A DNA stretch of 64,000 bases from NCBI GenBank assembly GCA_965242695.1, contig CBDESU010000002.1, positions 640,001 through 704,000 on the forward strand, read 5' to 3'. The position numbers and the translations under genes were made by a program. Of this stretch, positions 8,760-63,152 are shown one piece after another (within the stretch, counting starts at the first letter, position 1; each line of letters starts with the position of its first letter). Origin of the DNA: Cenarchaeum sp. (GTDB lineage: Archaea; Thermoproteota; Nitrososphaeria; Nitrososphaerales; Nitrosopumilaceae). The notes beneath the pieces are model-generated. The model worked only from the letters and a program-made list of their open reading frames with translations, was not told the origin of the DNA and searched no databases.

Positions 8760-8784
8760 AACAATGTATAGTCATTGTTATAAG
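8760..8784. promoter_or_regulatory. palindrome AACAATG-N6-CATTGTT abutting the TATA box (TTATAAG) of tfb
   Basis: Perfect 7-bp inverted repeat at 8760-8779 in a divergent promoter region. Confidence 0.55.
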
Positions 8785-8805
8785 CAATGCCGGCGCCTTT
8801 GTTCC

Positions 8806-17134: not shown

Positions 17135-17273
17135 GCCGCACGATCCCGTGTTGCCGCTAGGGTCGCCGTGTCAACATCCTTCTGTCCTGCGGTAAGGGGG
17201 ATCTGACCACGTACGGTGTAGCGGCCAGAACAATGTTCCGCATCTCTTTTATACGCGGCGGGGCAGAAGCCCC

Positions 17274-17711
17274 GTGATCTTGCAGGGGAGGCAGGCGGTC
17301 GAGGGCGGACGCGACGAGGAGGCCCTGCACATGGGCGCGCCCCGCGACATAGGCCGCCATGTGCCGAATGCCGGCGGCGAGGGCAGTGGCGCCGCCACAC
17401 CCGGGCGATCGGCAGGGGAGGTGGTCAGGACGATCGGCAGGCGTCTGTCATCCCTGTTCAGGGGCGGCGACAGGCGCCGCGCCGAGACCGGCGCCCGGCA
17501 GCAGCAACGGCAGCTGCGGCGCAGCAAGTGGTGGTTTTTGTTGCCCATATTTCTGCACGCAGTAGGCGGCATCATGGCCTTCTTTGTGCTACGCGAAGAC
17601 GATGCCAGAACGGCCCGCAACTGCCTGTACCTAGGCCTGTCGCTGACGGCACTCATGCTCGGGCCGCTTGTAGTGCTAGCGGCCATGGCCGGCTCCGGCG
17701 CCATCGACTAG
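17274..17711 (+). CDS. hypothetical membrane protein
   Basis: C-terminal hydrophobic segments (WWFLLPIFL...LYLGLSL); TTTTTATA about 25 bp upstream. Confidence 0.7.
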   Translation: MILQGRQAVEGGRDEEALHMGAPRDIGRHVPNAGGEGSGAATPGRSAGEVVRTIGRRLSSLFRGGDRRRAETGARQQQRQLRRSKWWFLLPIFLHAVGGIMAFFVLREDDARTARNCLYLGLSLTALMLGPLVVLAAMAGSGAID

Positions 17712-17925
17712 CGCGGCGAGTGCATTATCGCGTCTGCTGCGCGCCAGCGCGAACAAGAATGCAACCACACCACCGGCACAGCGTGACATCACCGTTCCTG
17801 CCCTCACCCCATCCATGCGAGGACCAAGAGATGGCCAGCAAGGCGTGCAGGCATGGCCCACACCACGGCGGCACGGCTAGGTGCCGCCTACGAGGGTTTT
17901 TGTAAGGACGGGTCGGCGGCAGGTC

Positions 17926-20900: not shown

Positions 20901-21132
20901 CTACGGCAGGCTTCCCGCCAAAGCGATGCAGCTATATGTGCCAGATCTCAAGGAAGTCGGCTTTGCAATCCAAAAGGGGCAGCTGGACAAACAGCGCAGC
21001 AGGATCGCCGAAGTGGCCAAGGCGGCCCTGCGGGGCGAGTTTGCGCCCACGCCGAGCGCCAAGGCTTGCTACAGATGTGATTACCTAGACATATGCGACG
21101 ACAGACATCCCAGCTCGGAGAAGAGGCGCTGA
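17926..21132 (+). CDS. UvrD/PcrA superfamily-1 helicase fused to C-terminal PD-(D/E)XK nuclease
   Basis: AGPGSGKT, LVDELQD, GDGDQSIY, NYRS, TIHQSKGREF, EERRLLYVAMTRA; GKMDRID, IDYKTG, C..CDY...C; start uncertain (17881 possible). Confidence 0.92.
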   Translation: MEITLDAEQKKAVEYDGGPLLVVAGPGSGKTRVLTERVRHLVRQGKATPEEILCLTFTDKAAGEMTKRLEKQGMDVSNMDIGTFHSFARKVLSDNELDTGLDIHGGVLEKAESAVWAINHIDDFGLKSVKVGNNATGVMRSIMDGISSFAKALYTPDDIDKYVSERVGGADEEEVEELLALADLSRVYRAYQEFKKSMHVIDYDDMVSEAIRLFEASPTIRRRYRKRYKHILVDELQDNNFAQFSLVRQLAEGGNVTGVGDGDQSIYSFQGAYRGIFDEFRSTFEGTHVVNLTTNYRSTENIVRVTNDWMEDKTDAFAKRLQSASKIDGEKIAVVECDADRGEAEYVANKIVEIEGLPHEAGAGGKGGNYKEIAILTRRKIDGDKFEAALAERGIPVKYAGSTDLLYTPIVRDLMAHIKIAARPSTSGAEITQLMKMHGITEKNIARINRAAKMNMFKDKKVGGGGGDYVLVTIKGEDGYSRPRTTQESEMDELEAKIDRLIDIGRGTMPLDQAVHAIMMSVSGLYKKVVQDDSKHGKMQRWQLNEVHRIAVEHARLYKARSHEDLEDSSENRMAERAKRDKESTLKGFIKYMYQMGEQEGESRDSLAAENAVEITTIHQSKGREFKAVFVPCVSKNRLPTTYRSKKFNVPNDLSRDKDRKADKKAVHKNEERRLLYVAMTRAKNRLFITFSKKYDGNVNDSKPSDFLGEGELDYKNLDRIAAETYPGSGAGAPVEKPDVVEKLMRDKQEQAITAIGGMSLNTAVRRIVELSKIKYFEMHGKFAGFDPAVVLEMEGEGGEAGMEDELRGTKGALLDADSYEFSASKIEAYEKCPRLFKFRHVLEVPSRSADASRKGIAVHKVLEQIGLRRMNGVDTSEEQALELLEMHWEGDAFDSKKTSDENKEAAKEMIYAVMKRDSDAVEGSSTIVGVEKKFALELDEGLKFGGKMDRIDKAADGSYIVIDYKTGKAKDIRKIAENIQMNMYAMGTESIYGRLPAKAMQLYVPDLKEVGFAIQKGQLDKQRSRIAEVAKAALRGEFAPTPSAKACYRCDYLDICDDRHPSSEKRR

Positions 21133-22876: not shown

Positions 22877-24346
22877 CTACGCATCGGCGTACATCGAGAC
22901 TTCCCAGGGCGTCGGGGTCTGCGCGAACGCGACGTACTCTTGGCGCTTCAGGTCCGAGTACTTGTCGAGAAAGTCGCGAGTAAAGACCTCTTCCAGGAAG
23001 CCGCAGTCGCTGCCGAGCGCGTCAAGGGCGCCCTTGAGCGAGGCCGGCAGCGTGCCGATGCCGTACTCGCGCTTCTTCTCGGGCGTGAGCCTGTACGCAT
23101 TCTCCTCAACGGGCGAGCCGGGATCGGCCTTGCGCCGTATGCCGTCTAGCCCCGCCAGCAGCAGCGCCGCCTCTAGCAGGTAGATGTTGGCGGTCGGGTC
23201 CGGCACCCTGTACTCGATCCTCTTGCTCTTTTGCTGGTTGCGGTAGTACATGGGCACCCTGATCGCCGCCGAGCGGTTTCCCATCCCCCAGCACACGTTG
23301 ACCGGCGCCTCGAACCCCGGCACGAGCCGCTTGTACGAGTTTGTCGTCGGGTTGGAGATGGCGCACAGCGCGGCCGCGTGGTCGAGGATGCCGCCGACGT
23401 AGTACCTGCCGGTCTGGCTCAGCTGCGCTACCTCGTCGTCTGGATCGTACATGGCGTTGGTCTCGCCGTTCCACAGGCTCTGGTGCGTGTGCATCGCAGA
23501 CGCGTTGTCGCCGTATATGGGCTTGGGCATGAACGTGGCGACCTTGTTGCGGCGCCTGGCCTTTACCCTCACGACGTTCTTGGCGGCGACCACGTTGTCG
23601 GCCATTGCCATCATGTCGTCGTACACGAGGTTGATCTCGCACTGCCCCGACGTGGCGACCTCGTGGTGCTCGGCCTCTATCTTTATGCCAAAGTAGCGGT
23701 ACAGGTCCTCGCAGATGTCCTTGCGGAACGACTCTAGCGTGTCCTTTGGCTGCGACGGGTAGTACCCCTCCTTGAGGTCGATGGCCGTGCTGATGTTGCC
23801 CTTTGACCACGGCGACTCCTTGGACTCTATCGAGTAGCCGGACCCGCCGTACGAGTGCGTCGCCGCGTACGGGGACGGGTACACCGTGATGGTGTCGAAC
23901 ACGAAGAACTCTAGCTCGGGCCCCCAGAAGGCGTGCGTCAGGCCGGCCTCGGAGAGCTTGGCGGCCGCCTTCTTCGTGATGCCGCGCGAGTCGCGGTTGT
24001 AGCGCGACTCGTACGAGGTGTTGCCCTCGTACAGGTCGCAGATGAGGCGGGCGTTCTTGCGGCGCCCGTCGTCGTACTCGGGAGGCAGTATGCAGAACGT
24101 GGACGGGTCGGGCTTTAGGATCATGTCGGACCGGTTGACCGACTTGAAGCCGAGTATAGAGCTCGCGTCTAGCTTTTCAAGGCCGTTCTTGAAGCTGTCC
24201 GCGTCGATGGCGTAGCTCGGCATGCCCATGCGCCGCAGCTCGCCGAATATGTCGACGAACCAAAAGTCGACGAACGTGATCCGCTCGTCGTCAATCGCCT
24301 TGAGGACGGCGGCCGCATCCAACGCGCGGCGGCGCCGGGGCGGCAT
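22877..24346 (-). CDS. glnA: glutamine synthetase type I family (copy 1)
   Basis: GPELEFF, HHEVA, TFMPKP, NSYKRLVPGFEAP, NRSAAIRVP, IEYRVPD. Confidence 0.92.
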   Translation of the reverse strand: MPPRRRRALDAAAVLKAIDDERITFVDFWFVDIFGELRRMGMPSYAIDADSFKNGLEKLDASSILGFKSVNRSDMILKPDPSTFCILPPEYDDGRRKNARLICDLYEGNTSYESRYNRDSRGITKKAAAKLSEAGLTHAFWGPELEFFVFDTITVYPSPYAATHSYGGSGYSIESKESPWSKGNISTAIDLKEGYYPSQPKDTLESFRKDICEDLYRYFGIKIEAEHHEVATSGQCEINLVYDDMMAMADNVVAAKNVVRVKARRRNKVATFMPKPIYGDNASAMHTHQSLWNGETNAMYDPDDEVAQLSQTGRYYVGGILDHAAALCAISNPTTNSYKRLVPGFEAPVNVCWGMGNRSAAIRVPMYYRNQQKSKRIEYRVPDPTANIYLLEAALLLAGLDGIRRKADPGSPVEENAYRLTPEKKREYGIGTLPASLKGALDALGSDCGFLEEVFTRDFLDKYSDLKRQEYVAFAQTPTPWEVSMYADA

Positions 24347-47155: not shown

Positions 47156-47857
47156 CTAGCCGCGGTCCGTGCCGACCCGCGCGGCCGCCCCCTGCGAGAC
47201 GAGGGCCGCCGCATTCTCGAGCGGAATGGTCGCCACGTCCTCCGCCGAGTACGGGCCGTACCGCGCCATGTCGGCGCCGGTCATCTCGTCGACCGGCTTG
47301 AGCATCCTGACCATGACCAGCCCCGTCCTGTGCGCGGCCGTGACGGACTCGAGGAGCCGCGGGCGGCCCGAGACAATGCCGTCAAGGACAAGCGAGCGCC
47401 TCTCGTCCATGTCCGTGCCGGGGTAGAGGATGTACTTTTCCTCGTCGAGCAGGTTGCCGGGGCCGGGGGGCGGGGCGGGACCCTGGGGGGGCGGGGCGTC
47501 CTGCTCGCCCGCCAGAGCGCCGTCGGGGGGCGAAAAGTCGGCGGGCGGGCCGGGGGCGGGGGCCTCTTCGCCGGCCGGGGGCGGGGCGCCCCGGCGCGGA
47601 CGGCCGCGCCGGCCGGCCGCCTTCTCTAGGCGCATCTCGAGCAGCAGCGAGAGCATGAGCGTGGCCCTGGACGTGACGGCCCTCTTCACGGCCGCCTCTG
47701 CGCCGTCGTACCGCTCGTGCTTGAGGCGGCCGAGGTACTCGGACGCGGCCCTGTAGAAGTCGGGGTCCATCTCCTGTATGACGTCGTCGCGCGCCTCGCG
47801 CAGCGCCGCCTCGTAGAGCATGCCCAGGCTGACATCGGTCGTCTCCACGGCCGCCAA
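47156..47857 (-). CDS. GINS family replication protein (Gins15/51-type)
   Basis: QEMDPDFY, MRLEK, LLDEEKYI, G.D...YGPY.AEDVATIP.ENA..L. Confidence 0.82.
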   Translation of the reverse strand: MAAVETTDVSLGMLYEAALREARDDVIQEMDPDFYRAASEYLGRLKHERYDGAEAAVKRAVTSRATLMLSLLLEMRLEKAAGRRGRPRRGAPPPAGEEAPAPGPPADFSPPDGALAGEQDAPPPQGPAPPPGPGNLLDEEKYILYPGTDMDERRSLVLDGIVSGRPRLLESVTAAHRTGLVMVRMLKPVDEMTGADMARYGPYSAEDVATIPLENAAALVSQGAAARVGTDRG

Positions 47858-47894: not shown

Positions 47895-49355
47895 TTGCCA
47901 TACAGGGTAAGCCACGGGAAGGCGCTAGAGCTGCGCTACTCGGCAGATGAGGTCTTCTCCAAGATACAGCACGAGGGCATAAAGTTCGTCGACCTCCAGT
48001 TCACGGGGCTGACCGGCCGGTTCCACCACACGACCATCTCGGCCGACACGTTCACGCCCGAGCAGATGACCGACGGCCTGCCAAAGCTCGACGGCTCGTC
48101 GATCGTCGGCTTTACGAACATCGACGACTCGGACCTGGTCCTCAAGCCGGACCCGAACACGTTCGCCGTCGTCCCCTGGTACTCGGAGAACAAGACGGCC
48201 AGGCTCCTGTGCGACGTGTACTGGGGCGCCGGCAGGGGCAGGCTCAACCGCGACCCGAGGGGCATAGCGCAAAAGGCCGAAGAGTCCGTCAAGGCCGCCG
48301 GGTTCGACTTTAGCGCGTGGGGCCCCGAGGTCGAGTTCTTCGTCTTCGACAAGGTCCACTGGGACGTCCTGACGCCGTACAAGGGGCAGTCGTACTCGAT
48401 CGAGTCCGAGGAGGCGCCGTGGAGCCAGGAGGGGACGGGGTACCCCATGGGCCTGCAGGAGGGGTACTATCCGAGCACGCCGTCGGACACGCTCACGCCG
48501 TTCCGCAACGAGTGCGTCAACGTCCTCAACGAGTCCTTTGGCATACTGTGCGACAACCACCACCACGAGGTGGCCACCGCCGGCCAGTGCGAGATAGACA
48601 TCAGGTACGACTACCTCACCAACGCGGCCGACGCGACGCAGTCGTACAAGTTCGTCATACGGAACATCGCCAAGAAGTACGGCAAGATCGCCACGATGAT
48701 GCCAAAGCCGATCTCGATGGACTCTGGCTCTGGGATGCACACCAACGTGAGCCTGTGGAAGAAGAAGAAGAACATCTTCTTCGACCCCGAGGGCGACATG
48801 GAGCTGAGCCAGACCGGCAGGTACTTTTGCGGCGGCATCCTGTCGCACGCAAAGGCGCTGTGCGCGATAACCAACCCGACGACAAACTCGTACCACAGGC
48901 TCGTCCCCGGCTACGAGGCGCCCGTGTACGTGGCGTGGAGCGGCAGCAACCGCTCGGCCATAGTCAGGGTGCCCCGGCACTTCAAGGGCGAGGGGTACGC
49001 GGCGCTCAAGCGCCTCGAGTTCAGGGCGCCGGACCCGTCGGCCAACCCGTACCTGGTGTTCTCGTCGGTGCTGGCAGCGGGGCTCGACGGCGTCAAGAGG
49101 AAGGTCGACCCCGGAGACCAGGTCAAGGAGGACATATTCAAGATGACAAAGTCCGAGAGGTCAAAGAGGAACATCGGCGTCCTGCCGGCCAACCTGGGCG
49201 AGGCCCTCGATGCGCTGGAGAGCGACCGCAAGTTCCTCGCGTCCATATTCCCGGACGACGTCGTCGACAAGCTCATCGAGCTCGAGCGGCGCGACCAGCG
49301 CGAGATCTCGATCAGGCCCCACCCGCACGAGTTCTACCTGTACTTTGACGTGTAG
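47895..49355 (+). CDS. glnA: glutamine synthetase type I (copy 2)
   Basis: DGSSI.GF, GPEVEFF, HHEVA, MPKP..DSGSGMH, RLVPGYEAP, NRSA, EFRAPD. Confidence 0.93.
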   Translation: MPYRVSHGKALELRYSADEVFSKIQHEGIKFVDLQFTGLTGRFHHTTISADTFTPEQMTDGLPKLDGSSIVGFTNIDDSDLVLKPDPNTFAVVPWYSENKTARLLCDVYWGAGRGRLNRDPRGIAQKAEESVKAAGFDFSAWGPEVEFFVFDKVHWDVLTPYKGQSYSIESEEAPWSQEGTGYPMGLQEGYYPSTPSDTLTPFRNECVNVLNESFGILCDNHHHEVATAGQCEIDIRYDYLTNAADATQSYKFVIRNIAKKYGKIATMMPKPISMDSGSGMHTNVSLWKKKKNIFFDPEGDMELSQTGRYFCGGILSHAKALCAITNPTTNSYHRLVPGYEAPVYVAWSGSNRSAIVRVPRHFKGEGYAALKRLEFRAPDPSANPYLVFSSVLAAGLDGVKRKVDPGDQVKEDIFKMTKSERSKRNIGVLPANLGEALDALESDRKFLASIFPDDVVDKLIELERRDQREISIRPHPHEFYLYFDV

Positions 49356-51755: not shown

Positions 51756-51792
51756 GGGCGGGCCGCTTTCGGGGCCACATATAAGGTATCCG

Positions 51793-51804
51793 AATTGCGC
51801 AATT
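51793..51804. promoter_or_regulatory. perfect palindrome AATTGCGCAATT next to the thermosome TATA box
   Basis: 12-bp palindrome; CTTATATG on the minus strand at about 51778-51785. Confidence 0.5.
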
Positions 51805-51830
51805 TCGGGCCGTCGGGGCGGTTCGGCGCC

Positions 51831-52037
51831 CGTGCGCAGGCGTGGGGGGGGCGCCCGTGCGCAGGCGTGGGGGGGTTCGTTGGGGGGGGGCGTGCGCAGG
51901 CGTGGGGGGGTTCGGCGTCTGGGGGGGGGGGCAGGGGCGCCAGGTCACGCGTCGGTGTCGGGAGGGGCGACGGGGGCAGGCACCCGGCCCCGCAAAGGGG
52001 GCAGGGGCGCCAGGTCACGCGTCGATGTCGGGAGGGG
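51831..52037. repeat. G-rich intergenic repeats (20-bp unit x3; 41-bp unit x2, period 70)
   Basis: CGTGCGCAGGCGTGGGGGGG at 51831, 51856, 51891; GGGGGCAGGGGCGCCAGGTCACGCGTCG... at 51927 and 51997. Confidence 0.85.
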
Positions 52038-52239
52038 GCGGCCGCCGGCCCGGCCCGGCCCTGCCAGCCGTGCCGTCCGGCACCTCTGCTTCCAGCACCC
52101 CCTTGTGTGCGGCGCCGCTACCGCCGGCCCCTCCCCGCGGAGGGCAGGACAGGGCCGCAGGCCCCACGCCGTAGCTGGGGCGAGGGGGGCGGCCACCCAC
52201 CCTAGACGTTTTAAATGGGGATGGATGCGCAGGGGCTGC

Positions 52240-53568
52240 ATGGCAGACAAGTACGTGACCACTCCTAGGGAAATGTACCGGCAGGTCTTTGACGATCTGC
52301 AACGGCACCACAGGTGGTTCCAGAATGCGATACCGCTCATAGCAAGCGAGAACATACCGAGTCCCGCAGTGCGCGAGGCCCTCGCATCGGACTTTGGCAA
52401 CCGGTACGCCGAGGGCTGGCCCGGCGAGCGCGTCTACGCCGGATGCACCTACATCGACAAGGTCGAGGTCATGTGCGCCAAGATCGCGCGGACGCTGTTC
52501 AGGGCCCAGTTTGCCGACGTCAGGCCGATCTCGGGCGTAGTGGCCAACCTGGCCGTCTACTCGGCGTTTTCAAAGCCGGGCGACACGATGCTGGCCCCGT
52601 CCATACCGGCCGGCGGGCACATATCCCACGGCAAGAGGGAGCACTCGGGGACGGCCGGCCTGGTCCACGGCCTCGACATCGAGTTCTTCCCGTTCGATCC
52701 GATGGAGATGAACATAGACGTGGATGCGACCAAGAAGAAGGTGCGCCAGCTAAAGGGCTCGAAAAGGCCCAAGATTGCGATGTTCGGCGGGTCGCTGTTC
52801 CTGTTCCCCCATCCGGTCAAGGAGCTGTCCGAGTTCCTCAAGGGTTACGGCATGCACGTCAACTACGACGGGGCCCATGTGGCGGGGCTGATCGCCGGCG
52901 GAATGTTCCAGGATCCCCTGCGCGAGGGGGCAGACACGTTCACGGCCAGCACCCACAAGACCCTGTTCGGGCCGCAGGGCGGAATGGTCCTAGGCCGCAA
53001 GGAGCATGCCGATCCGATCAAAAAGGCCGTCTTCCCCGGCCTGACAAGCAGCCACCACATACACCACATGGCCGCAAAGGCCATCGCGTACGCGGAGGCG
53101 CTCAAGTTCGCAGAGCCGTACGCCAAGCAGGTCGTTGCCAACGCCAAGGCGCTCGCGGAGGCGCTCAGCGAAGAGGGCTTCAAGGTGCTCGGTGAGTCCA
53201 ACGGGTTTACAAAGTCGCACCAGGTGGCGGTCGACGTCCTCAAGTACTCGGACGGCGGCAAGGTCGAGAAGGCCCTCGAAATGGCCAACATCATAGTCAA
53301 CAGGCAGCTCATACCCGGCGACATCAAGGCTGGCAGGCACTACCTGCACCCGGGCGGCATCCGCCTGGGCGTGGCCGAGGTCACTAGGCTCGGCATGAAG
53401 GGCGACGAGATGAAGAGGATTGCCGAGCTCATCAGGCAGGTCGTCATAGACCGGGTGGATCCTAAGGACAACAGGATCAGGGCCAAGACGCTCAGGCGCG
53501 ACTTCCAGACAGTCTACTACTGCTTTGACCGCGCGACGCCGGCGTACAAGTACCTCCGGCTCAGGTAG
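52240..53568 (+). CDS. glyA: serine hydroxymethyltransferase
   Basis: [36 protein letters not shown]; TTTTAAA upstream. Confidence 0.96.
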
Positions 53569-53642: not shown

Positions 53643-56600
53643 CTACTCCGCATAGTCCGTGAGCAACGCCTGGTCGCCGCCCCCCTTGCCGAACACCAGT
53701 TCGATCTCGTCGGCCAGGGCGTGGATGCGCCCGTGGTTGTACTTGCCGACTTCGTACTGCTCGACAAGGCGCTTGGCCGGCCCCAGGTACTTTTCGACCG
53801 AGGCCCTCGTAATGGTCTGTATGATCTCGTGGCCGCATTTGCAGCGGCCCTTGAGGGGCGGCCGCCGGTAGGACGTGTTGCAGGCGGTGCACCGCAGCTG
53901 CTGCCGCGCGTACGACCGCAGGTTGCCCATGATGTCGGGCACTAGGTGCGAGGAGATCACGTTCGTGACTATCACGGTCGTGTCGACGGCGCGTATCAGG
54001 TCGGCGTTGCGTATCTGCATGTCGAGCTTGTCGAGCATTGAGCCGACCGTCGAGTAGGCGCTGCGCGAGTTCGACGAGGCCAGCTGCGACGTCGCGTGCG
54101 TGTAGTGGTAGTTGCGGAACTGCTCGGGCGAGTCGAGGCGGGACCGGATGATCTCGATGCAGTCTATGTCGGACGCCTTTGGTAGGCCGAGCGTGGCCTC
54201 GAAGAACCTTGCGGGAAAGGCGCGCATGACCTCGAGGTTGTGCGCCTGCGGCTGCGACTCGTGAGGCAGGACAAGCGGCTGTATGAGCAGCGGCGCGTCC
54301 ATGAGCCCGCCGATCCTGTCGGACAGGTAGTCGCGCGAGAAGTTGAGCAGGACGTCCATGAGGAGCATTACAGAGTCGGCGTCGCCGTCGGCGTCGCGCC
54401 GCTTGGCCGAGTGCCAGTTCGGCGTCCCAAAGCACACCTGCATGCCCGTCCGGCCGATTATCCTGGCCACCACGCCGACCGAGGTGTGCGGCGCAAGTCC
54501 GACGACAAGGTGGCCCACCAGGCCGTCGGCGTCCTTGACGTTGTAGTAGCGCGGCCTGCCGTAGAGCCGCTCAAGCTCGTCGTCTATGTACCTGCACGCC
54601 TTGACAAGGTACGAGGCGCCCTCCTCGGGGATGACTATATCCTGCATCATAATCTCGACGGTCTGGTCGTCTCGCTCGAGTGGAAGGCCGTCTACGTCGC
54701 GCTCGTACCCGAGCTCCCTGAGCCGGGCCACGCTCGTGCCTATCCACGACGGCCTGAAGTGGGTCAGTGGCGAGTTGGTCGCGTCGAACCGAACCGTCCC
54801 GTCCTTGAAGACGGTTAGTCCGCAGCTCTGCCGGATCAGCCCCTTCTCGAGCGGCTCGGCGGCGCGGTCGTGGCTGATCAGCTCGTTGACCCCCTTGAGG
54901 GGGGTGTGCGCCCGAACGCGGGCCTGTTCCTGGGCCGCCGCGAGCATCTTCTTAAGCGGAACGGGCTTGTACGAGTATGCGGCAACCTTCCTGCCGCACG
55001 TATCGCACTCGGCGCCGTCCACGCTGGTGCGGCACTTGGAGCAGGTGCGCTCTAGCGATGTCTTCTCTCCGCATGCGGCGCACCGGATGCCGAGGGACAG
55101 CTCTCCGCATGCGGCGCACTTCCGGTTCGATATGTTCGTGAAGAAGGACGGCTCGTCGGCCGCCTTGATCAGGTCGCGCTGCGGCCCGCCCTTTGACGAG
55201 ACGGGAAACAGGCAGTGTACGGGAGGGTTCATGCTGCGCGCTGCCGCCTTTTCGGGGCGGCCAATCCTGACCCCCAGCGCGGTCGAGAATTTCGGCCGTA
55301 TCTCGACCCCGGACGATGCGGTGATCGCTGCCGGGACGGTCGGTCGGGCCCCGTCGCCAGAGCCCAGATCCGGCCGCTTTTCATAGAGCAGTACGTTGAA
55401 CAGGACGGCCTCGTCGCCGGACAGGACGGCCTCGTCGCCGTCGAGCCGATGGGGCACGCCAAGGCTCTCAAGGACGGGCTTGCACGTGGCAGCGTCAAGG
55501 CGCAGCTCGGCCGCGGCCGCATCGCCGCCGCCTCCGCCGTCCCCGTGCAGCACGCCCTCCAGCAACGCAGCCAGGTCGTCGATTGTGATCTGATCCCAGT
55601 AGTGTAGGTAGCGCGGGTGCAGCGGCACGCCAGCGTCCCGGGCAAGGCGCAACGACTCGGCAAGCGACGGGGGCTTTTCGAGGAAGCGGCCCAGGGCGGC
55701 GCGCGCCTCGTACCCGCCCTCCTTTATTCGGGCAGCCAGCTCCGCCTCCCAGTACTCCTCGACGTACCCGGACGGCACAAGCGGCGCGTTGTTCTCGAGA
55801 AAGTCGCCGAACGAGACGAGGGCGTCGCCGAGGTGGATCACCTCCTTGATCTTCCCCTTGAGGCGGGCGGCGTGCGCCGCGTCGCGGACCCGAACGACAT
55901 CGCCGCCGGCGAGCATCACCGTCGGCGGCTCGATCGAGTCGACCAGCGCCACGGTGGCGCCCTTTCCCGGCATGTCGATCTTGACCTGCGTGCCGACCGT
56001 TATCGTGTGCTCGAGGATCTCGGCGACCGCCGGATGGAACCCGACCGCCGCAAACCCCGTGTTGCATGCCCTGCCGTACCGCAGCCGGAAGCCGCCCAGC
56101 CGTCCCGGCGTGGACAGCACCGACCGGCCAATGATCACCTCGCGCATGCGCTTGGCCGCCGCGCCCTCCTCGTCGTCGCCCGTCTGGTCTGCGCCGTGCA
56201 GGTCCGCCAGCCACTCCCAGCCCTCGAGCTTGTACATGTCGATGCGCTTGAGGAGTTTTTTGGACCTGCCGATGAGCCCGTCGTTGAGGACGCGCAGCGC
56301 CCCGCCGCGCACCCGATCCGTCTTGATCCGCCGCATGCCTTTGTGGTTTACCACCTCGACGGGATCCGTGTCGACCCCGTCGAGCTCCACGGGCAGGTTC
56401 GATATGACCTTGACTATATCCTCGTCCTTGACGCGGTACTGGAACCCTATGCCCGACTCGCGCTCGTACACCCGCAGCTCCTCGACGAAGCGGCCCGTCT
56501 CGTCGTCGAACGAGTTGGCGGCGTACTTGTCCAGGCCGGCCGTCTTGCGCACGTGGTCCGCGAGCAGCATCGTGACGGCCGACTCGGTGCCGCCGGCCGA

Positions 56601-57077
56601 CCGCATCGGCCCCGCAATCGACACGGACAGGTACTCGCTCTCGTCCTTGTTCTTCTTTATGGTCACGTCGGCGATGCCCTGCAACGGGGCAATCGTCACT
56701 CCCTCGGTCACTACGGCCAGCCCGACCCTGACCGCCATGTCCAGGCGCTCGACGAGCTCTGCGTCCGGCTGCATGTACTTGCCGCGCGCGATCTCCTCGG
56801 ACAGGCGCAGCGCCGTAACCTCCTTGCCCTGCGATGCGAGGCGCTCGCGCAGGTCGGCGGCTATGTCGATATCGTGCATCCTCGCGACGCGGTCGGCCAG
56901 ATCGTACGCAATGCGCGGCTCTACGCTCGACGAGGCGTCGACGAGCGTCGACTTTGCCGCCGCCGCCGCCTCAAACTCGTCGCCCGACCGCTTCGTCAGC
57001 CCCGCGTAGTAGTCGTAGTAGTGGCCCGGCATGTCCATGCCGCGAAGGCGGCCCAGGGCATCGTCGTACGAGCTCAC
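53643..57077 (-). CDS. polC: DNA polymerase D large subunit DP2
   Basis: GPMRSAGGT, GGFRLRYGR, KDGTVRFD, AKRRDADGD.D, Zn fingers; no intein seen. Confidence 0.97.
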   Translation of the reverse strand: MSSYDDALGRLRGMDMPGHYYDYYAGLTKRSGDEFEAAAAAKSTLVDASSSVEPRIAYDLADRVARMHDIDIAADLRERLASQGKEVTALRLSEEIARGKYMQPDAELVERLDMAVRVGLAVVTEGVTIAPLQGIADVTIKKNKDESEYLSVSIAGPMRSAGGTESAVTMLLADHVRKTAGLDKYAANSFDDETGRFVEELRVYERESGIGFQYRVKDEDIVKVISNLPVELDGVDTDPVEVVNHKGMRRIKTDRVRGGALRVLNDGLIGRSKKLLKRIDMYKLEGWEWLADLHGADQTGDDEEGAAAKRMREVIIGRSVLSTPGRLGGFRLRYGRACNTGFAAVGFHPAVAEILEHTITVGTQVKIDMPGKGATVALVDSIEPPTVMLAGGDVVRVRDAAHAARLKGKIKEVIHLGDALVSFGDFLENNAPLVPSGYVEEYWEAELAARIKEGGYEARAALGRFLEKPPSLAESLRLARDAGVPLHPRYLHYWDQITIDDLAALLEGVLHGDGGGGGDAAAAELRLDAATCKPVLESLGVPHRLDGDEAVLSGDEAVLFNVLLYEKRPDLGSGDGARPTVPAAITASSGVEIRPKFSTALGVRIGRPEKAAARSMNPPVHCLFPVSSKGGPQRDLIKAADEPSFFTNISNRKCAACGELSLGIRCAACGEKTSLERTCSKCRTSVDGAECDTCGRKVAAYSYKPVPLKKMLAAAQEQARVRAHTPLKGVNELISHDRAAEPLEKGLIRQSCGLTVFKDGTVRFDATNSPLTHFRPSWIGTSVARLRELGYERDVDGLPLERDDQTVEIMMQDIVIPEEGASYLVKACRYIDDELERLYGRPRYYNVKDADGLVGHLVVGLAPHTSVGVVARIIGRTGMQVCFGTPNWHSAKRRDADGDADSVMLLMDVLLNFSRDYLSDRIGGLMDAPLLIQPLVLPHESQPQAHNLEVMRAFPARFFEATLGLPKASDIDCIEIIRSRLDSPEQFRNYHYTHATSQLASSNSRSAYSTVGSMLDKLDMQIRNADLIRAVDTTVIVTNVISSHLVPDIMGNLRSYARQQLRCTACNTSYRRPPLKGRCKCGHEIIQTITRASVEKYLGPAKRLVEQYEVGKYNHGRIHALADEIELVFGKGGGDQALLTDYAE

Positions 57078-57847
57078 GGCCCAGACCCGCCGCTTCGGCG
57101 CCGCTGCCCCTGCATGGCGCCGATCATCTCCTCGATCACCGCAAGGCGGTCCGGCCCGGCGGCCTCTAGCAGCGTCCCGACGACGACTGCGTCGGCGCCG
57201 GCGGCCGATATCCGCCCCGCCGTCTCGGCGTCGCGAATGCCGCCGCCCACGATCAAAAAGCCGTCAAACACCTTGCGCACCGCGGCGACCATCTCGGGCC
57301 TTACGCTGGAGGCGGCCCCCGAGCCCGCCTCCAAGTACACAAACCGCATGCCAAGAAACCGCGCGGCCAGCGAGTACGCCGCGGCGATGGCAGGCTTGCC
57401 GTGCGGAATGGCCCGGGCCGAGCCGACAAACCAGGCCGTCGTGCCCTCGCCGACGACCAGATACGCGGTCGGAAGCGCCTCGAGGCCGTGCCGAAGGACG
57501 CTTGGCGCCGCCAGCGCCTGCGCCTGCGTGATGTAGTAGGGGTTTTCCGAGTTCATCAGCGAGCTGAACAGGATTGCGTCGGCGCCGCCAACCACCCCCG
57601 TGATGTTGCCGGGGAACAGCACGACGGGCACGCCCACGGCGTCCTTTATGCCCTGCACGGTTCGGGCAAGATCAACCTGGTCAGCCGTCGTCGACCCGCC
57701 GACCAGTATGGCCGAGGCGCCGCCAGACTCGGCCCGCCGGGCCGACTCGCTTGCCGCCGACGCGTCGGACACCTCCGAGTCGATGAGGGCAAACAGCAAC
57801 GTCCCCTTTTCAGAGCGCTCCCGGCGCAGCCTGGCCTCCACACCCAC
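57074..57847 (-). CDS. geranylgeranylglyceryl phosphate synthase
   Basis: ILVGGST, LFPG, YLEAGSGA, VGGGIR. Confidence 0.93.
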   Translation of the reverse strand: MGVEARLRRERSEKGTLLFALIDSEVSDASAASESARRAESGGASAILVGGSTTADQVDLARTVQGIKDAVGVPVVLFPGNITGVVGGADAILFSSLMNSENPYYITQAQALAAPSVLRHGLEALPTAYLVVGEGTTAWFVGSARAIPHGKPAIAAAYSLAARFLGMRFVYLEAGSGAASSVRPEMVAAVRKVFDGFLIVGGGIRDAETAGRISAAGADAVVVGTLLEAAGPDRLAVIEEMIGAMQGQRRRSGGSGP

Positions 57848-57914
57848 GAGGAGGCGCCCGTCTGACGGTCTTTAAAGTTTAAGTGGCAGGCCCCGCATAC
57901 AGATTTGTATAGCT

Positions 57915-58277
57915 TTGACGGAACACGACGAGTCTGGTTTCAAGGGGATTATTAGGGAAATAATAGAAAAATCCCTGTTTACGGAGCGTCAAATTGAAAT
58001 TTTGTTACATTCGAAGGGCCTCAAGGAATCTAGTCTGGGCATTAGCAGGGGTGCGTACTACAGGCAGGAGGGCCAGGCGCGCGACAAACTGGCCCGATTC
58101 TACTACACGGCCGTCCTCCTGCGCGCCCTAGGCGTGCTACTGCCAGATGACATGGATGTAATGTCACGCCTAGCCGAGCAGGTATCAGTGATACTAGATG
58201 GTGATATTGGGGAGGAGCGCAACGATGAGGTGTTAGATGTGATTGAAAAGATCATAAAACAGGCGTCAAAAGTGTGA
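57915..58277 (+). CDS. hypothetical HTH-like protein
   Basis: SLFTERQIEI...ISRGAYYR..GQAR; TTG start; TTTAAA boxes upstream. Confidence 0.7.
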   Translation: MTEHDESGFKGIIREIIEKSLFTERQIEILLHSKGLKESSLGISRGAYYRQEGQARDKLARFYYTAVLLRALGVLLPDDMDVMSRLAEQVSVILDGDIGEERNDEVLDVIEKIIKQASKV

Positions 58278-58400
58278 TTTGCGGGCGCGACCACGTGCGA
58301 CTCCATGCACAGTCTATGAGGCCAGCGTTGCAAAGATCGCGTGATTTGTGAGTTTTAGTTGACCAAACGACTTAAATCACCATACGGGGCGGGGCCAGCG

Positions 58401-59006
58401 TTGGCCATTGAACTGACGGCCCTAGAGATGGTGCTGGGCGGCATACTCGCCTTCCTTGCGGGGCTGTTCGCCCTGCTGTTCTACTACGAGCGGCGGACGG
58501 CGCGCCAGACGGCACAGAGTGGACAGGATCCGGCACACCTTGATCGCCTGGAACAGTACGAAAACCAGTTGATTGGTATGAAAATACGCCTAGATGCCCT
58601 CAGCTTAGGTGTCACAGAGCCGGCAGGCCAGGCAGGGCAAGAAGAGGGCGGCAGCCAGGACGCGTCAAGGGCTGCGGACGACAGGCAGGGAGAGCCGAGC
58701 AGGGAGAAGGCAACCACAAGCGAGCCACCGGCGCCTGTAGCGGCGTCCGGCTCAAAGCAGCCCCCGGCAGGCCCATATGATATTACAAATCACATATTAC
58801 AACTTATCACATCAAAGTCAATGACCTCTCGTGATATTCAAATCACAATCGGTAGGACGCGCGAGCATACATCAAGGCTAATGAAGCGGCTGGCAGAGGA
58901 AGGCCTCGTCAAGAGGCACCCCGGCTCGAGGCCATACACATACTCGATCACAGAGCGTGGGAAGGAGAGACTGGGAGGCCAGAAGAGCATAGCATCAGAA
59001 CCATAG
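58401..59006 (+). CDS. membrane-anchored winged-helix DNA-binding protein
   Basis: N-terminal TM, coiled coil, linker, C-terminal TSRDIQ...REHTSRLMKRL..EG.V.R...PY.Y.IT..G; start uncertain (58359 or 58401). Confidence 0.78.
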   Translation: MAIELTALEMVLGGILAFLAGLFALLFYYERRTARQTAQSGQDPAHLDRLEQYENQLIGMKIRLDALSLGVTEPAGQAGQEEGGSQDASRAADDRQGEPSREKATTSEPPAPVAASGSKQPPAGPYDITNHILQLITSKSMTSRDIQITIGRTREHTSRLMKRLAEEGLVKRHPGSRPYTYSITERGKERLGGQKSIASEP

Positions 59007-59099
59007 CGGCAGGCCATGCACCGCCCCCTCTCAAGGCCTTCTCCCTATACACTCGCGCCACAGCAACCTGGCATGTTATTCCTAGACCTGTCATGTACA

Positions 59100-59212
59100 C
59101 ATGTTCATTTTACGCTTAAATTAACATGTATTATTATTATTTTAATAAGTATTAATTATTATAAATTAGGCTTTTTATACCATAATAAATTATTTATAAT
59201 CAAAAATAATGC
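59100..59212. other. extremely AT-rich tract (candidate unwinding element or promoter region)
   Basis: About 110 bp that is almost entirely A/T in a GC-rich genome. Confidence 0.7.
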
Positions 59213-59221
59213 TTGGGCGGT

Positions 59222-59383
59222 ATGGATACGCAACATGACGAAGCGCTTGTCAAGGTCACAGTGGCAGGCACCATCTCGCTGCCAAAGCAGTTCAGAAAGT
59301 ACATGGACTTGCAAAGGGGCGACTATGTCAAGGTCGTACTTGACGGGGATCGGCTGACTGTGAGAAAGGCTGTTATCACATAG
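59222..59383 (+). CDS. AbrB/MazE/SpoVT family DNA-binding protein (53 aa)
   Basis: Translated by hand: VKVTVAGTISLPKQFRKYMDLQRGDYV; absent from the ORF track. Confidence 0.85.
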   Translation: MDTQHDEALVKVTVAGTISLPKQFRKYMDLQRGDYVKVVLDGDRLTVRKAVIT

Positions 59384-59795
59384 GCAGTCTTCCCGCTTGG
59401 CTGGCGGCCACCAGAGGGGCCTCCTTGACCACGTGGTACGACCACTCCCTGCCTGTTTTGACCCTCTCAAGCTGCCCCTTGTGGGCAAACCTCGACAGGT
59501 AGGTCGATATGACGCTCAGCTTGATGGGGCGATTGTACTCGTCCTCGTATTTTTCAAGCACAGCCGTCGAGGTAAACCGTCCCATTGGGTACTCCTTCTC
59601 AACGACATGCCATATCCTAGAGCCTACCGAGTCTAGGCTAGGCGCCTCCTTTGGGTCGTCCTCTATGTTTATCATCTCCATGGCCTCGAATATCCTAAGG
59701 ACCTTCTCCCTCGTGACTGCCCCCTCGAGCTTGATGTCGTACCTCATCCCGTCGGCATCCTCCATGTCGATGCGGATACGCTTGCGTCCCATCAC
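59376..59795 (-). CDS. hypothetical winged-helix protein
   Basis: FTS..VLE.YEDEY..PIKLSVISTYLSR...G.L.R.K.GREW.Y. Confidence 0.75.
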   Translation of the reverse strand: MMGRKRIRIDMEDADGMRYDIKLEGAVTREKVLRIFEAMEMINIEDDPKEAPSLDSVGSRIWHVVEKEYPMGRFTSTAVLEKYEDEYNRPIKLSVISTYLSRFAHKGQLERVKTGREWSYHVVKEAPLVAASQAGRLPM

Positions 59796-59799
59796 ACCC

Positions 59800-60370
59800 T
59801 GTAGTGTGGCGCGCCGTTAACCCCTCTTGTCAATCTTTGTTAACATGCTAGGTTGTGAAAGTTGACGCCTAGTAGCCGCGCTGTAGGGGCCTGACGATAA
59901 CAGGCCTGCCGCTGGGGTGCCTGCCGCTGGGGTGCCTGCCACGCCTAGAGTGGAAATGAAGGGGTCAAACCGGCCCCTTCACAGTGTTAACGCCCATCTT
60001 CACGCCTAGAGTGGAAATGAAGGGGTCAAACCGGCCCCTCCTAGGCTGGACTTCACACCTACCTAGCGGCTGTGAACGGGCCTTGCCCTGTGTACCGTAC
60101 CCTCTACTCTACCCACACACCATCATTTCCACTCTCTTTCTTTTCAAATTTTTTTCAAGAGTAGCTGTCTGTGGGTGTGGTGTCGTCATGCCAGTATGAT
60201 CTAGAGTGGAAACGTGGGTGTGTGGGCAGGCAGGCGTGGCGGGGGAGGGACGGGGAGGGATGAACGCGGGTGGGTGCATGGGCGAAGGCGGCAGTCTTGG
60301 CAGGCTGTAGTCAACATCTTTACACCTCTGCCGAACAAACATCGACAAGCGGCGTTAACGACGGCCGGTG
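59800..60370. promoter_or_regulatory. probable replication origin oriC with ORB elements
   Basis: CTAGAGTGGAAATGAAGGGG at 59945 and 60006, inverted CATTTCCACTCT at 60124, CTAGAGTGGAAAC at 60201; T-rich tract at 60137-60158; directly upstream of cdc6. Confidence 0.85.
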
Positions 60371-60382
60371 CGACCCTGCAAC

Positions 60383-61597
60383 ATGAGGGCGGTCTACGAG
60401 GACCCAGTCGAGAGGCTGTTCGAGGCGGCCGAGGCGGGGCAGATGCTCATCCAGAACAGGGAGATACTCCACTTCACCTACATCCCCGACGTGATACGGC
60501 ACAGGGACACGGAGCAAAAACAGGTGGCGCAGTCGCTCCTGCCGATCCTAAAGCAGTCGAAGCCGTCGAACCTCCTCGTGTACGGCAAGCCGGGAACCGG
60601 CAAGACGCTGGTGGTCCGCAAGATACTCGACCAGATACGCGAGAGGGTAGACCGCTCCGAGTTCCCGATAAGGCTCGTCTACTCCAACGCCAAGGAGGAG
60701 ACTACATTGTACGGGCTGTTCATAAGCCTCGGCAAGCAGCTGGGCCTCAGCGACAAGGACATGCCGGCGACGGGGCTTGCCATCGCCGAGATATTCCGGC
60801 GCATACTGGCGGCCGTCTCAAAGGGCGCCCTCAACGTGGTCTTCGTGATCGACGAGATCGACCACCTGGCGCACATGGTGGCCAAGACGCACAACGACGT
60901 GCTGTACCAGCTGACGAGGGCTAACGAGCGCGTCAAGGCAGGCTCGATAACCATAGTCGGCATATCCAACGACCTGACGTTCAAGGAACGCCTCGACCCG
61001 AGGGTGATCAGCACCCTGCGCGAGGAAGAGATAGTCTTTACCAACTATACGATAAGCCAGATACAGAGCATACTGAGGGACAGGATTGGCGCCGCGTTCG
61101 TCGCCGGCTCGGTGAGCGATCCCGCCCTGAGCCTCTGCGCTGCCATGGCGGGGCGCGAGCACGGCGATGCAAGGAGGGCCCTGGACCTGCTGCGCGTGGC
61201 GGGCGAGGTGGCCGAGCGCGAGCAGGCGCCGGCGGTCACCGAGGTCCACATCAGGGAGGCCGCCTCGAAGATAGAGGAGAACAAGGAGGTTACCGCCCTC
61301 AGGTCGTACCCCCTGCACGAGAAGCTGCTGATACTGGCCGTGATGAGGGCGCAGGGGTCGACGACCGGCGAGATATATGCCACGTACAAGAGCCTGGCGC
61401 GGACGATCCGCCAGAGCGAGCTGACCAACAGGCGCGTCACGCAGATGCTCAGTGAGATAGAGATGTCCGGGATGATATCCGGACGGATAGCCCACCAGGG
61501 CCGGCACGGGCGCACCAAGAAGTTCCGGCTTATGGTCTCGCCGGACATGGTAAAGAAGACGTTTGCCGGCGACCTAGCCCTGGTCGACGTCCTCTAG
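60383..61597 (+). CDS. cdc6: Orc1/Cdc6 replication initiator
   Basis: YGKPGTGKT, IDEID, GISND, GDARRALDLL, wHTH with GRHGRTK. Confidence 0.96.
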   Translation: MRAVYEDPVERLFEAAEAGQMLIQNREILHFTYIPDVIRHRDTEQKQVAQSLLPILKQSKPSNLLVYGKPGTGKTLVVRKILDQIRERVDRSEFPIRLVYSNAKEETTLYGLFISLGKQLGLSDKDMPATGLAIAEIFRRILAAVSKGALNVVFVIDEIDHLAHMVAKTHNDVLYQLTRANERVKAGSITIVGISNDLTFKERLDPRVISTLREEEIVFTNYTISQIQSILRDRIGAAFVAGSVSDPALSLCAAMAGREHGDARRALDLLRVAGEVAEREQAPAVTEVHIREAASKIEENKEVTALRSYPLHEKLLILAVMRAQGSTTGEIYATYKSLARTIRQSELTNRRVTQMLSEIEMSGMISGRIAHQGRHGRTKKFRLMVSPDMVKKTFAGDLALVDVL

Positions 61598-61601
61598 GGG
61601 G

Positions 61602-63152
61602 CTAGGCAAGGCCGGACGACGCATCGCCGTGCTCCACGCAGTCCTTGGTGAAGACCTTGAACGTCTTGAGGTTGACCAGGACGGCCTGGCCGGCGTCGGG
61701 CTGTATGCCGCGCGCCTGCTGGAAGGGGGTCTGCGACTGCCACGTGCCAGAGTTGACCGTCAGCACGCCGCGGTGCAGCCCAAAGCCGAGCCTGTGGACG
61801 TGACCCACGTGCAGTATGTCCGGCACCTCGTCGATGACGAGCATGTCCTCGGTCTCGGGCGCGATGGGCGTCTGGCTGCCGTAGATGGGGCTGAGGTGAC
61901 GCGCCTTGAGCAGCGCCTCCATGACCGGCCCCGGCTCGTCGTAGCTTAGGCCCGGCGCGGCCTTTACGAGGTCGTCGGCGCTCTGGCCGTGGAACATGGT
62001 CACGCGCACGCCGTTGAGCGAGATGCTGGCGGGGTTGCCGAGCATTTCGACGTTGGGCATGGCCCACATCTCGGGGCAGAACTTTTCGGGTATGGCCGGC
62101 TGCGGCAGGGCGCGCCTGCCGGGGTCGTGGTTGCCCGGTATGACGAATATTTTGATGTGCTCGGGGACGAGCGAGAGCAGCGATGCGAGCTTTGACATCT
62201 GCTCGCCGGCCGTCTTGTGGATGAGCTCCTTGTCCTGGTCGGGGTAGACGCCGACGCCGTCGACGACGTCGCCGCAGAGCAGGACAAACCGCACCCTCCT
62301 TGCAGTCGGGTCGGGGCCGGACAGCCACCTGGCAAAGAACTCGAACTCGCGCTCGAGGAAGAACCGGCTGCCCACGTGCAGGTCGGAGAGGAGCACGGCG
62401 TAGGCGTCGGTCTTTGACCGGCGCCTGGCCGTGTCGGCCACGTCGGGGGACATTATCTCGCGCGCGACGAGGCCGCTTCCCCTGCCCGCGCCCACCCTTG
62501 CCACCACAAGCTGATCGTGGAACAGCGCCTCGGCGTCCTTGCGCACGTCCTCGTCGTACGCGACAAGCTCGACCGTGCCCGTCGGGTCGTCGATTGTGAC
62601 GCGCACCGCCGTGCGGTCGGTCGACTTTGACGTCACAAGGCCGCACACGTACGGATCGTCGCCCCCCTCGCCGCCGCGTCCGCCTCCTCCCCCTGCCCTG
62701 CCCCCCTCGCCCCCCTCTTCCCTCCCTCCCTCTCCCCCCTTCCTGCCTCGCGGGCGCGGCGGGGCCGGCGGCGACTCGACCAGGGACTTGATCGTGCGCA
62801 TGCGCTTGGCCTCGGGCCGGTCTGCCACGATCGCCCTGAGCTTTTCAAAGCGGCTCTTGAAGAGGGCCGCGTACCCTTCCGCACCCTCGCCGGATGCCGT
62901 CCGCCCCGTAGGATCCGATACGACCTCGTAGTCGGCGTCCACCTCTTCGTCCCCGCCCACGCCGAGCAGCTCGTCAAGGTCGGCCGGCCCTATGTGGTAT
63001 GCGCGCTGGCGGGTCTTTTCCTTGACCAGGTCCCGGATCAGCTTCGGCAGGGCGCCCGGCTCGATGCCCTCCAGCGTGAGCAGGGCGTCGGGGTGCACCT
63101 GGAACCCCCTGCTCAGGGCGTAGCTGAGCGCCTGCTTCACGTCCCTTCTCAT
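61602..63152 (-). CDS. polB: DNA polymerase D small subunit DP1
   Basis: SDLHVGS, GDVVDG.GVYP.Q, PGNHD, FHG, HVGHVH, NSGTWQ. Confidence 0.95.
   Translation of the reverse strand: MRRDVKQALSYALSRGFQVHPDALLTLEGIEPGALPKLIRDLVKEKTRQRAYHIGPADLDELLGVGGDEEVDADYEVVSDPTGRTASGEGAEGYAALFKSRFEKLRAIVADRPEAKRMRTIKSLVESPPAPPRPRGRKGGEGGREEGGEGGRAGGGGGRGGEGGDDPYVCGLVTSKSTDRTAVRVTIDDPTGTVELVAYDEDVRKDAEALFHDQLVVARVGAGRGSGLVAREIMSPDVADTARRRSKTDAYAVLLSDLHVGSRFFLEREFEFFARWLSGPDPTARRVRFVLLCGDVVDGVGVYPDQDKELIHKTAGEQMSKLASLLSLVPEHIKIFVIPGNHDPGRRALPQPAIPEKFCPEMWAMPNVEMLGNPASISLNGVRVTMFHGQSADDLVKAAPGLSYDEPGPVMEALLKARHLSPIYGSQTPIAPETEDMLVIDEVPDILHVGHVHRLGFGLHRGVLTVNSGTWQSQTPFQQARGIQPDAGQAVLVNLKTFKVFTKDCVEHGDASSGLA

Follow-up and report, generated by a model that had tools for sequence, protein, structure and literature searches.

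The window analyzed here is a 64-kb stretch (G000:C2:640001-704000) of the 3.89-Mb, 67% GC genome of a Cenarchaeum species, in which four small genes, ORF1 to ORF4, lie between the gene for GGGP synthase and the replication origin next to orc1/cdc6. The sequencing runs that contain this stretch are sponge metagenomes and coded organisms, and the source names of homologues include Nitrosopumilus, Nitrosarchaeum, Nitrosotenuis and 'Cenarchaeum symbiont', by which the class appears to be Nitrososphaeria. A first-pass annotation had taken all four small reading frames for DNA-binding proteins and proposed that they tether, compact or segregate the origin. All four are indeed present between the GGGP synthase gene and the origin recognition boxes (ORBs), and the genes and DNA elements observed directly in this region are given below (positions in the window; elements without a strand are marked as such).

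57074..57847, minus strand: GGGP synthase (PcrB PF01884, E 6.6e-51; NF003198, 292 bits), divergent from ORF1
57896..57911, no strand: dyad-symmetric element CATACAGATTTGTATA, 4 nt upstream of the ORF1 start
57915..58277, plus strand: ORF1, 120 aa, putative helix-turn-helix (HTH) and C-terminal helical hairpin
58359 (longest form, 215 aa) or 58401 (likelier, 201 aa)..59006, plus strand: ORF2, membrane-anchored winged helix
59100..59212, no strand: AT-rich stretch with a ATAAATTAT core, upstream of ORF3
59213..59383, plus strand: ORF3, AbrB/SpoVT-type, 56 aa
59376..59795, minus strand: ORF4, beta-beta-alpha unit and BlaI-like winged helix, 139 aa
Between ORF4 and orc1/cdc6: origin region, 572 bp
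59816..60359, no strand: four GTTAAC boxes (59816, 59839, 59986 and 60354), interleaved with the ORBs
59904..59940, no strand: 15-nt tandem repeat (Tandem Repeats Finder score 74)
59940..60229, no strand: origin core, with ORBs and a T-rich stretch
60368..61597, plus strand: Orc1/Cdc6 initiator (TIGR02928, 354.6 bits; Cdc6_lid and Cdc6_C)

As the first-pass annotation had stated, no ParA or SegA was seen in the window, where 53 proteins were scanned (45 + 8, 17 of the 45 being without a Pfam match). Genome-wide, the search for ParA-type ATPases returned a single AAA_31 match, on another contig (C1). An Rfam scan of 57000-61000 at E<=0.1 gave no match.

Conservation of the genes beside cdc6

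For the comparison with relatives, 20-kb loci were collected in three sets of 20, with every fetched locus counted and none dropped. Set A comes from the same family or order and is centered on an ORF2 homologue, while set B (other families of the class) and set C (other classes of the phylum) are both centered on ORF4. Two genes no more than 1.2 kb apart were counted as adjacent, with the following result.

ORF4 and cdc6: 17/20 in set A, 19/20 in set B, 10/20 in set C
ORF2 and ORF4: 18/20 in set A, 14/20 in set B, 7/20 in set C
ORF1 and ORF2: 20/20 in set A, 16/20 in set B, 7/20 in set C

The first-pass annotation had named missing linkage to the origin in relatives as the result that would speak against it; instead, ORF4 is found linked to cdc6 in all three sets. 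The two genes are divergent in 17, 18 and 10 loci of sets A, B and C, with a gap of 317-829 bp. The set-A loci without this adjacency are two contig ends and one rearranged genome (G022), where ORF4-cdc6-DP1 lies 59 kb from DP2-GGGP synthase-ORF1-ORF2; the one in set B is a contig end. Five genomes of other classes have ORF4 away from cdc6; they contain two or three cdc6 paralogues, and ORF4 lies 22-505 kb from the best of these. The control genes for thermosome, glutamine synthetase and SpoIIM occur in 13, 13 and 12 of the 20 set-A loci and in none of the 20 loci of set B or the 20 of set C. The block is thus kept where they are lost, i.e. it outlives general synteny.

The description as a four-gene module holds for ORF1, ORF2 and ORF4, which mostly travel together, but not for ORF3, which is present in 12/20 set-A loci, in 0/20 of set B and in 0/20 of set C (0/40 outside set A). 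ORF3 is a family-specific addition or insertion outside the conserved core. ORF4 was found in 135/151 genomes of the class and in 110/111 of the high-quality ones (a tally that includes one unpublished genome, G158), with one match per class genome in all but one of those that have it. Across the phylum it was found in 134/201 genomes and not in several whole families, e.g. 0/16 in f35. ORF2 has 2615 homologues; within the order it is present in 39/41 genomes, 37 of which contain a single match, as does the genome studied here. Judging from this distribution and gene order, ORF1, ORF2 and ORF4 evidently form an old, vertically inherited set that also occurs in several other classes of the phylum.

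The outer members of the region, which serve here as context, are as follows.

52240..53568, plus strand: serine hydroxymethyltransferase (SHMT; PF00464, E 8.8e-79), outer member of the conserved block
53643..57077, minus strand: DNA polymerase D (PolD) large subunit, DP2 (tblastn and phmmer homologue matches in relatives; beyond these matches, we take the name from our reading of the sequence)
61602..63152, minus strand: PolD small subunit, DP1 (DNA_pol_E_B, Metallophos)
After DP1: SpoIIM-family protein

Two minus-strand reading frames at 52557-52841 and 52863-53327, both among the 45 proteins mentioned above, were set aside as antisense artefacts inside the SHMT gene, which received a scan of its own. 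In three loci of one family of the class (L037, L038 and L039) the cdc6-ORF4 adjacency is kept and no PolD subunit was detected within 10 kb; Nitrosocaldus is described as lacking PolD in an excerpt of PMC5797428.

GTTAAC boxes between the origin recognition boxes

The region between ORF4 and orc1/cdc6 has the layout expected of an archaeal oriC, with direct and inverted ORBs around an AT-rich stretch beside the initiator gene. ORB1 (59940-59978) and ORB2 (60001-60039) are two identical 39-nt repeats, followed by an inverted ORB (60109-60135), the T-rich stretch (60136-60160) and a fourth ORB (60201-60229), the inverted arms being 85-89% complementary. The 10-nt ORB core occurs exactly four times in the 64 kb, always within 59947-60212, against 1.07 occurrences expected in the 64 kb. 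In this arrangement of ORBs around a T-rich stretch next to cdc6 the region resembles canonical archaeal origins; it differs from them in holding a second conserved class of box, GTTAAC, between the ORBs. Abutting ORB1, the 15-nt tandem repeat GCCTGCCGCTGGGGT is present in 2.5 copies (59904-59940); in the closest relative, a tandem repeat with different spacer letters occupies this position, and no such repeat is seen in AT-rich relatives.

The ORF4-cdc6 gap contains every GTTAAC site of the window, four in total. The hexamer is mildly under-represented in the 3.89-Mb genome (50 sites vs 75 expected), and the gap is the only place in it with at least three sites in 700 bp, or with two within 400 bp. 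In 46 ORF4-cdc6 gaps (45 relatives and the window) there are 88 GTTAAC sites, against 8.45 +/- 2.9 in dinucleotide shuffles (the largest of 200 shuffles giving 17), and among the 64 palindromic hexamers GTTAAC ranks first in enrichment. When measured against the rest of each 20-kb locus, 84 sites were observed and 5.4 expected. At least one box is found in 33/46 gaps and at least two in 24, and with flanking bases the consensus is TGTTAACA. Counted from the ORF4 start, the boxes recur near +20, +50, +110, +195 and +288 and the ORBs near +160, +222 and +320, and these positions hold in other families of the class too.

Upstream of cdc6 in eight more distant genomes no GTTAAC cluster was found, from which no functional inference is drawn, the origin positions there not being established. 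Outside the origin gap, GTTAAC is scarce in AT-rich set-A relatives (L021, L022 and others), e.g. with no site in 19.4 kb at 35% GC, which could reflect restriction avoidance or selection against stray binding sites. A further motif, GGCAGGCMCC, has 4/6 exact sites in 57885-59940; it is not conserved in AT-richer relatives and was rejected as lineage-specific.

The boxes between the ORBs are palindromic and stand at too great a distance from both start codons for simple promoter elements, from which we infer that Orc1/Cdc6 shares the origin with a dimeric DNA-binding protein. The reading that we tentatively prefer is that ORF1, ORF2 and ORF4 are origin-associated regulators, predicted to bind in and beside oriC. 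As to which protein binds what, and with what effect on initiation, a dimer of ORF4 and/or ORF2 would occupy the GTTAAC boxes, and this occupancy would tune the access of Orc1/Cdc6 to the origin as well as the transcription of cdc6 and of ORF4 itself. ORF4 and ORF2 would be the nearest candidates for box binding: the expected ORF4 promoter overlaps the first boxes, and the recognition helix of ORF2 varies with the presence of boxes. Loci with the helix variant REH[T/A]xR have GTTAAC boxes in 22/26 cases, those with REH[I/V/N]xR in 4/13.

The encoded proteins and the elements upstream of them

ORF4 is transcribed away from the origin and, being divergent from cdc6, should have its promoter within the ~450-640-bp origin region. 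Its winged helix (residues 57-122) is confidently modeled by AlphaFold2 (AF2; pLDDT >90), in line with the earlier description of a winged helix-turn-helix (wHTH) protein next to the origin, while the N-terminal beta-beta-alpha unit has lower model confidence and no match. Foldseek returned generic wHTH matches for ORF4. By sequence, the winged helix is nearest to the BlaI/MecI/CopY family (PDB 2k4b and 1p6r, E 0.04-0.3); the Penicillinase_R score of 20.6 bits is below the cut-off of 22.6, and 16/19 family members match at E<=0.05, the best at 1.1e-7. In BlaI the winged helix is N-terminal and followed by a C-terminal dimerization part. ORF4 differs in that its winged helix is C-terminal, with the novel beta-beta-alpha domain at the N-terminus instead. 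Every named ORF4 homologue is a 'hypothetical protein', and the stored homologue P0228 lies only in such clusters. The search for longer or fused forms of ORF4 gave one doubtful match, covering 31% of the query on a 1.3-kb contig.

ORF2 consists of an N-terminal membrane helix, a heptad helix, a disordered linker and a lone C-terminal winged helix. Relatives begin with M-L-V-E-I-P-D just before the hydrophobic helix, which makes TTG 58401 the likelier start. This helix is kept in 42/47 homologues and is followed by 2-6 Lys/Arg in nearly all of them, a charge bias that indicates an N-out, C-in orientation and thus places the winged helix in the cytoplasm. The five homologues without the anchor are all from set C, and one of them (L061) is a weak match and maybe not an ortholog. 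Between anchor and winged helix lies a conserved helix with the consensus RLEYYERQLIDMKIRLDAL, whereas the linker is very variable in length and composition and the winged helix strongly conserved. As such, the first-pass description of a membrane helix, a coiled coil and a wHTH stands for the anchor and the winged helix, and the coiled coil comes down to leucine spacing in the conserved helix. With only ~7-20 residues outside the membrane, ORF2 has no room for a sensor domain there, and neither a HAMP nor a sensor domain was found in the protein.

The winged helix of ORF2 scores above the cut-off for HTH_27 (23.8 vs 22.2 bits) and below those for TrmB (22.9 vs 25.6) and MarR (17.5 vs 24.6); the PDB sequence search gave weak wHTH matches only. 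Homologues are named MarR-family, predicted regulator or putative membrane protein in their sources. MarR proteins are usually soluble dimers in which helices flank the winged helix, and ORF2 departs from this build with its membrane helix, heptad helix, linker and lone winged helix. Its winged helix is only generically alike to that of ORF4 (profile-profile probability 28%), and the two are not close paralogues.

By this architecture, ORF2 would hold its winged helix at the inner membrane face on a flexible linker of variable length, so that any DNA bound by it would be drawn to the membrane; the anchor might either localize the bound DNA or keep the regulator inactive until release. In the proposal of the first-pass annotation, ORF2 would hold oriC at the membrane, for ParA-free segregation or for sequestering newly fired origins, and ORF1, ORF3 and ORF4 would compact or regulate the region. 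In its more specific form, a membrane-anchored ORF2 dimer sitting on the TGTTAACA boxes would hold oriC at the membrane, with ORF4 competing or cooperating there, as a ParA-free system. The conserved anchor with its charge bias, the strongly conserved winged helix on a variable linker without a sensor domain, and the lack of ParA in the window (with one AAA_31 match elsewhere in the genome) are in keeping with this proposal, as is, weakly, the co-variation of the recognition helix with the origin boxes. However, ORF2 is the very member that leaves the origin when the block breaks, the anchor is missing from the five set-C matches, and plain transcription factors bound to the membrane are likewise characterized by such an anchor. 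We saw no specific sign of tethering, compaction or segregation, and there is no ParA/SegA partner. We thus regard a tethering role as unlikely, in its general as in its more specific form.

ORF3 is of the AbrB/MazE type, above the cut-offs of both families (PF04014, 31.4 bits against 24.7; TIGR01439, 36.1 bits against 28.3), which bears out its earlier description as an AbrB-like protein. In the ~110 bp upstream of it (59100-59212), windows fall to a GC content of 0.43-0.44 in this 67% GC genome, and the ATAAATTAT core is conserved in six relatives. From its sequence this stretch is probably a strong promoter of ORF3; a role in unwinding or protein binding is also possible.

As ORF3 scores above the MazE_antitoxin/AbrB cut-off, it could be an antitoxin and the small genes the remnants of a mobile or toxin-antitoxin element near the origin, a reading that might also account for their third-position GC content (GC3), which is 0.58, 0.63, 0.65 and 0.75 for ORF1 to ORF4 and 0.86-0.89 in the flanking genes. 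Yet no cognate toxin gene was found near ORF3, whose neighbors are ORF2 and the convergent ORF4, no toxin family appeared in the scan, and the same GC3 dip recurs in all four other high-GC relatives tested (L013, L014, L016 and L023). Moreover, the vertical conservation of the genes over the whole class excludes a recent arrival, so that the remnant reading is highly improbable and, by the synteny data, close to refuted. Weak codon adaptation or selection for AT-richer DNA next to the origin are possibilities for the low GC3.

For ORF1, sequence searches of Pfam, NCBIfam and the PDB gave no match (in the PDB at E<=10), and a credible Pfam match is found in 0/18 members of its family. The AF2 model (pLDDT 84) shows five helices, of which residues 76-120 form a helical hairpin, and residues 19-74 superpose weakly on HTH domains of the LuxR/sigma-region-4 type (VIA Z 6.1 over 56 residues, with EsrB; Foldseek E>1). 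With such weak fold matches and no family match, the earlier label 'HTH-like' is plausible and weakly supported. S20, Q26, G46, R50 and Q54 are invariant in the ORF1 alignment (A1). Profile-profile comparison of ORF1 with ORF2 gave no match, and a complex prediction of ORF1 with the cytoplasmic part of ORF2 (score 0.01) is uninformative either way.

Upstream of ORF1, the dyad TATACA-N4-TGTATA follows a TATA-like box (TTTAAAG) and ends a few bases before the start codon. Perfect 6+4+6 palindromes occur upstream of ORF1 in 22/45 loci, against 2.5 in shuffles, and many other loci have the dyad with one mismatch. The arms co-vary across lineages (TATACA/TGTATA, AATACA/TGTATT and TTTACG/CGTAAA). 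Through this dyad, which overlaps the expected transcription start, ORF1 would most likely autoregulate the ORF1-ORF2 operon. ATACA-N4-TGTAT has only three sites in the 3.9-Mb genome, one being the ORF1 dyad and the other two standing in tandem upstream of an archaeal-ATPase-family gene. These tandem TATACATTTTTGTATA copies (G000:C2:1245114-1245149; L073 2115-2150) are nearly identical to the ORF1 dyad and lie between the AAA_16/ATPase_2 gene and an unannotated 396-aa reading frame; the pair may be a second target of whatever binds the ORF1 dyad.

Several other features of the window lie apart from these genes. The 485 bp between the thermosome gene and SHMT (51756-52240) reach up to 80% GC with a strong G skew, carry 25- and 35-nt tandem repeats and many G7-G10 runs, and look prone to form G-quadruplexes. 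Likely foreign DNA is found at 890-2506 and 14362-21132, and the likely foreign genes are a GmrSD-type restriction gene (GC3 only 0.47), an IS66-family transposase and a UvrD-helicase/PD-(D/E)XK fusion (GC3 0.69). The window also holds two TFB paralogues (8764-9768 and 10564-11475), two glutamine synthetase genes (22877-24346 and 47895-49355) and a Gins51 gene (47156-47857) ~12 kb from the origin.

Origin regulators or local regulators

Several observations weigh against a role of ORF1, ORF2 and ORF4 at the origin. Housekeeping genes share the conserved block, hence position alone does not give function: across sets A, B and C, SHMT (counted within 10 kb) is present in 18/20, 10/20 and 2/20 loci, and GGGP synthase in 20/20, 12/20 and 8/20. 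When the block splits, ORF1 and ORF2 stay with GGGP synthase, away from cdc6, by 59 kb in G022 and by 6-9 kb in two other genomes (L037 and L038). The boxes are absent from 13/46 gaps though the proteins are present. In the five genomes with ORF4 22-505 kb from cdc6, there are 0, 0, 0, 0 and 1 GTTAAC sites in the 1.6 kb upstream of cdc6 and 1, 1, 0, 0 and 0 upstream of ORF4. Furthermore, shared descent confounds the correlation between the ORF2 helix and the boxes, and an RNA hairpin in the 5' leader would explain the dyad upstream of ORF1 equally well. A cautionary precedent comes from haloarchaea, whose origin-adjacent oapABC genes were first suspected of a replication role and act in vesicle formation, as described in parts of PMC7921747 and PMC10927574.

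These points bring in the possibility that the three proteins are local transcription factors of an ordinary kind that play no part in replication and stand next to the origin through inherited gene order, in a 'replication island' that rearranges slowly. ORF1 would then autoregulate ORF1-ORF2, and ORF2 and ORF4 would control neighboring or dispersed genes, e.g. those for GGGP synthase, PolD or membrane-related functions; a membrane-bound regulator beside the first committed lipid gene could report the state of the membrane. Indeed, in 14/20 set-A loci only 60-96 bp separate ORF1 from the divergent GGGP synthase gene, the dyad upstream of ORF1 resembles a classical operator and is rare in the genome, and the names given to ORF2 homologues fit as well as do the retention of ORF1-ORF2 beside GGGP synthase and the housekeeping genes in the block. 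Membrane-bound archaeal regulators of adjacent genes are also known, namely ArnR/ArnR1 (PMC10117864, in part). What this explanation leaves unaccounted for are the GTTAAC boxes between the ORBs, which lie 200-300 bp from either start codon at conserved positions and form the sole such cluster in the genome; likewise, several lineages that keep ORF1-ORF2-ORF4-cdc6 have no GGGP synthase in the block (L040, L042, L044-L046 and L052). We therefore consider local regulation alone somewhat doubtful, and still favor, tentatively, regulators associated with the origin.

None of the known systems that we compared matches the set in full. SegAB and ParABS loci have in some cases been reported near origins. 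They are defined by an adjacent Walker-type ParA/SegA ATPase gene, and in this they differ from the ORF1-4 locus, which has none. A likeness is that SegAB function uses a small site-specific DNA-binding protein, according to part of PMC7617429. The haloarchaeal oapABC genes form a conserved cluster that lies directly across the main origin from orc1 and on the other strand (PMC7921747, in part), and their knockout (they are now named ArvABC) abolishes the formation of extracellular vesicles, as stated in an excerpt of PMC10927574. They are alike in being conserved genes adjacent to an origin, with a replication role first guessed from position alone. However, oapABC encode a small GTPase, a DUF2073 protein and a DUF2072 zinc-ribbon protein rather than HTH or wHTH proteins, and no Pfam match to any of these three was found in ORF1-4 or in members of the ORF1 and ORF4 families. 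ArnR and ArnR1 of Sulfolobus acidocaldarius are membrane-bound activators that are encoded beside their targets and bind inverted repeats (accessible part of PMC10117864). They share with ORF2 that an archaeal DNA-binding protein is fixed in the membrane, but ArnR has an N-terminal HTH, a HAMP/sensor part and a C-terminal membrane helix, i.e. the reverse order, and ORF2 is far more widely conserved.

New here are the GTTAAC boxes between the ORBs and the co-varying palindrome upstream of ORF1. The origin of Nitrosopumilus maritimus was reportedly mapped by Pelve et al. in 2013. In our literature search, no paper turned up that deals with these families, with a thaumarchaeal module flanking the origin or with GTTAAC boxes; that Nitrosopumilus origin-mapping paper lay outside the search and may bear on the boxes. 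Neither the families nor the boxes are mentioned in the accessible parts of two reviews (PMC4010727, PMC7617429) and of a phylogenomic study (PMC3914693). We give the finding a modest chance of being new in kind.

In archaea, the control of origin firing beyond Orc1/Cdc6, the placement of origins and their segregation are largely open questions. The three uncharacterized families described here, two of them without any Pfam family, mostly have one match per genome, are linked to the origin over very long evolutionary distances and are near-universal in a globally abundant group, which makes the conserved trio good candidates for controlling the start of replication. If they were plain local regulators, the analysis would still annotate several thousand 'hypothetical proteins' and would give, after haloarchaeal oapABC, a second case of conserved origin-adjacent genes that need an explanation. 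And if ORF2 did hold oriC at the membrane, ammonia-oxidizing archaea and their relatives would possess a system without ParA in which initiation, the positioning of the origin and membrane growth are coupled, and which would have been passed down from before the classes of the phylum diverged.

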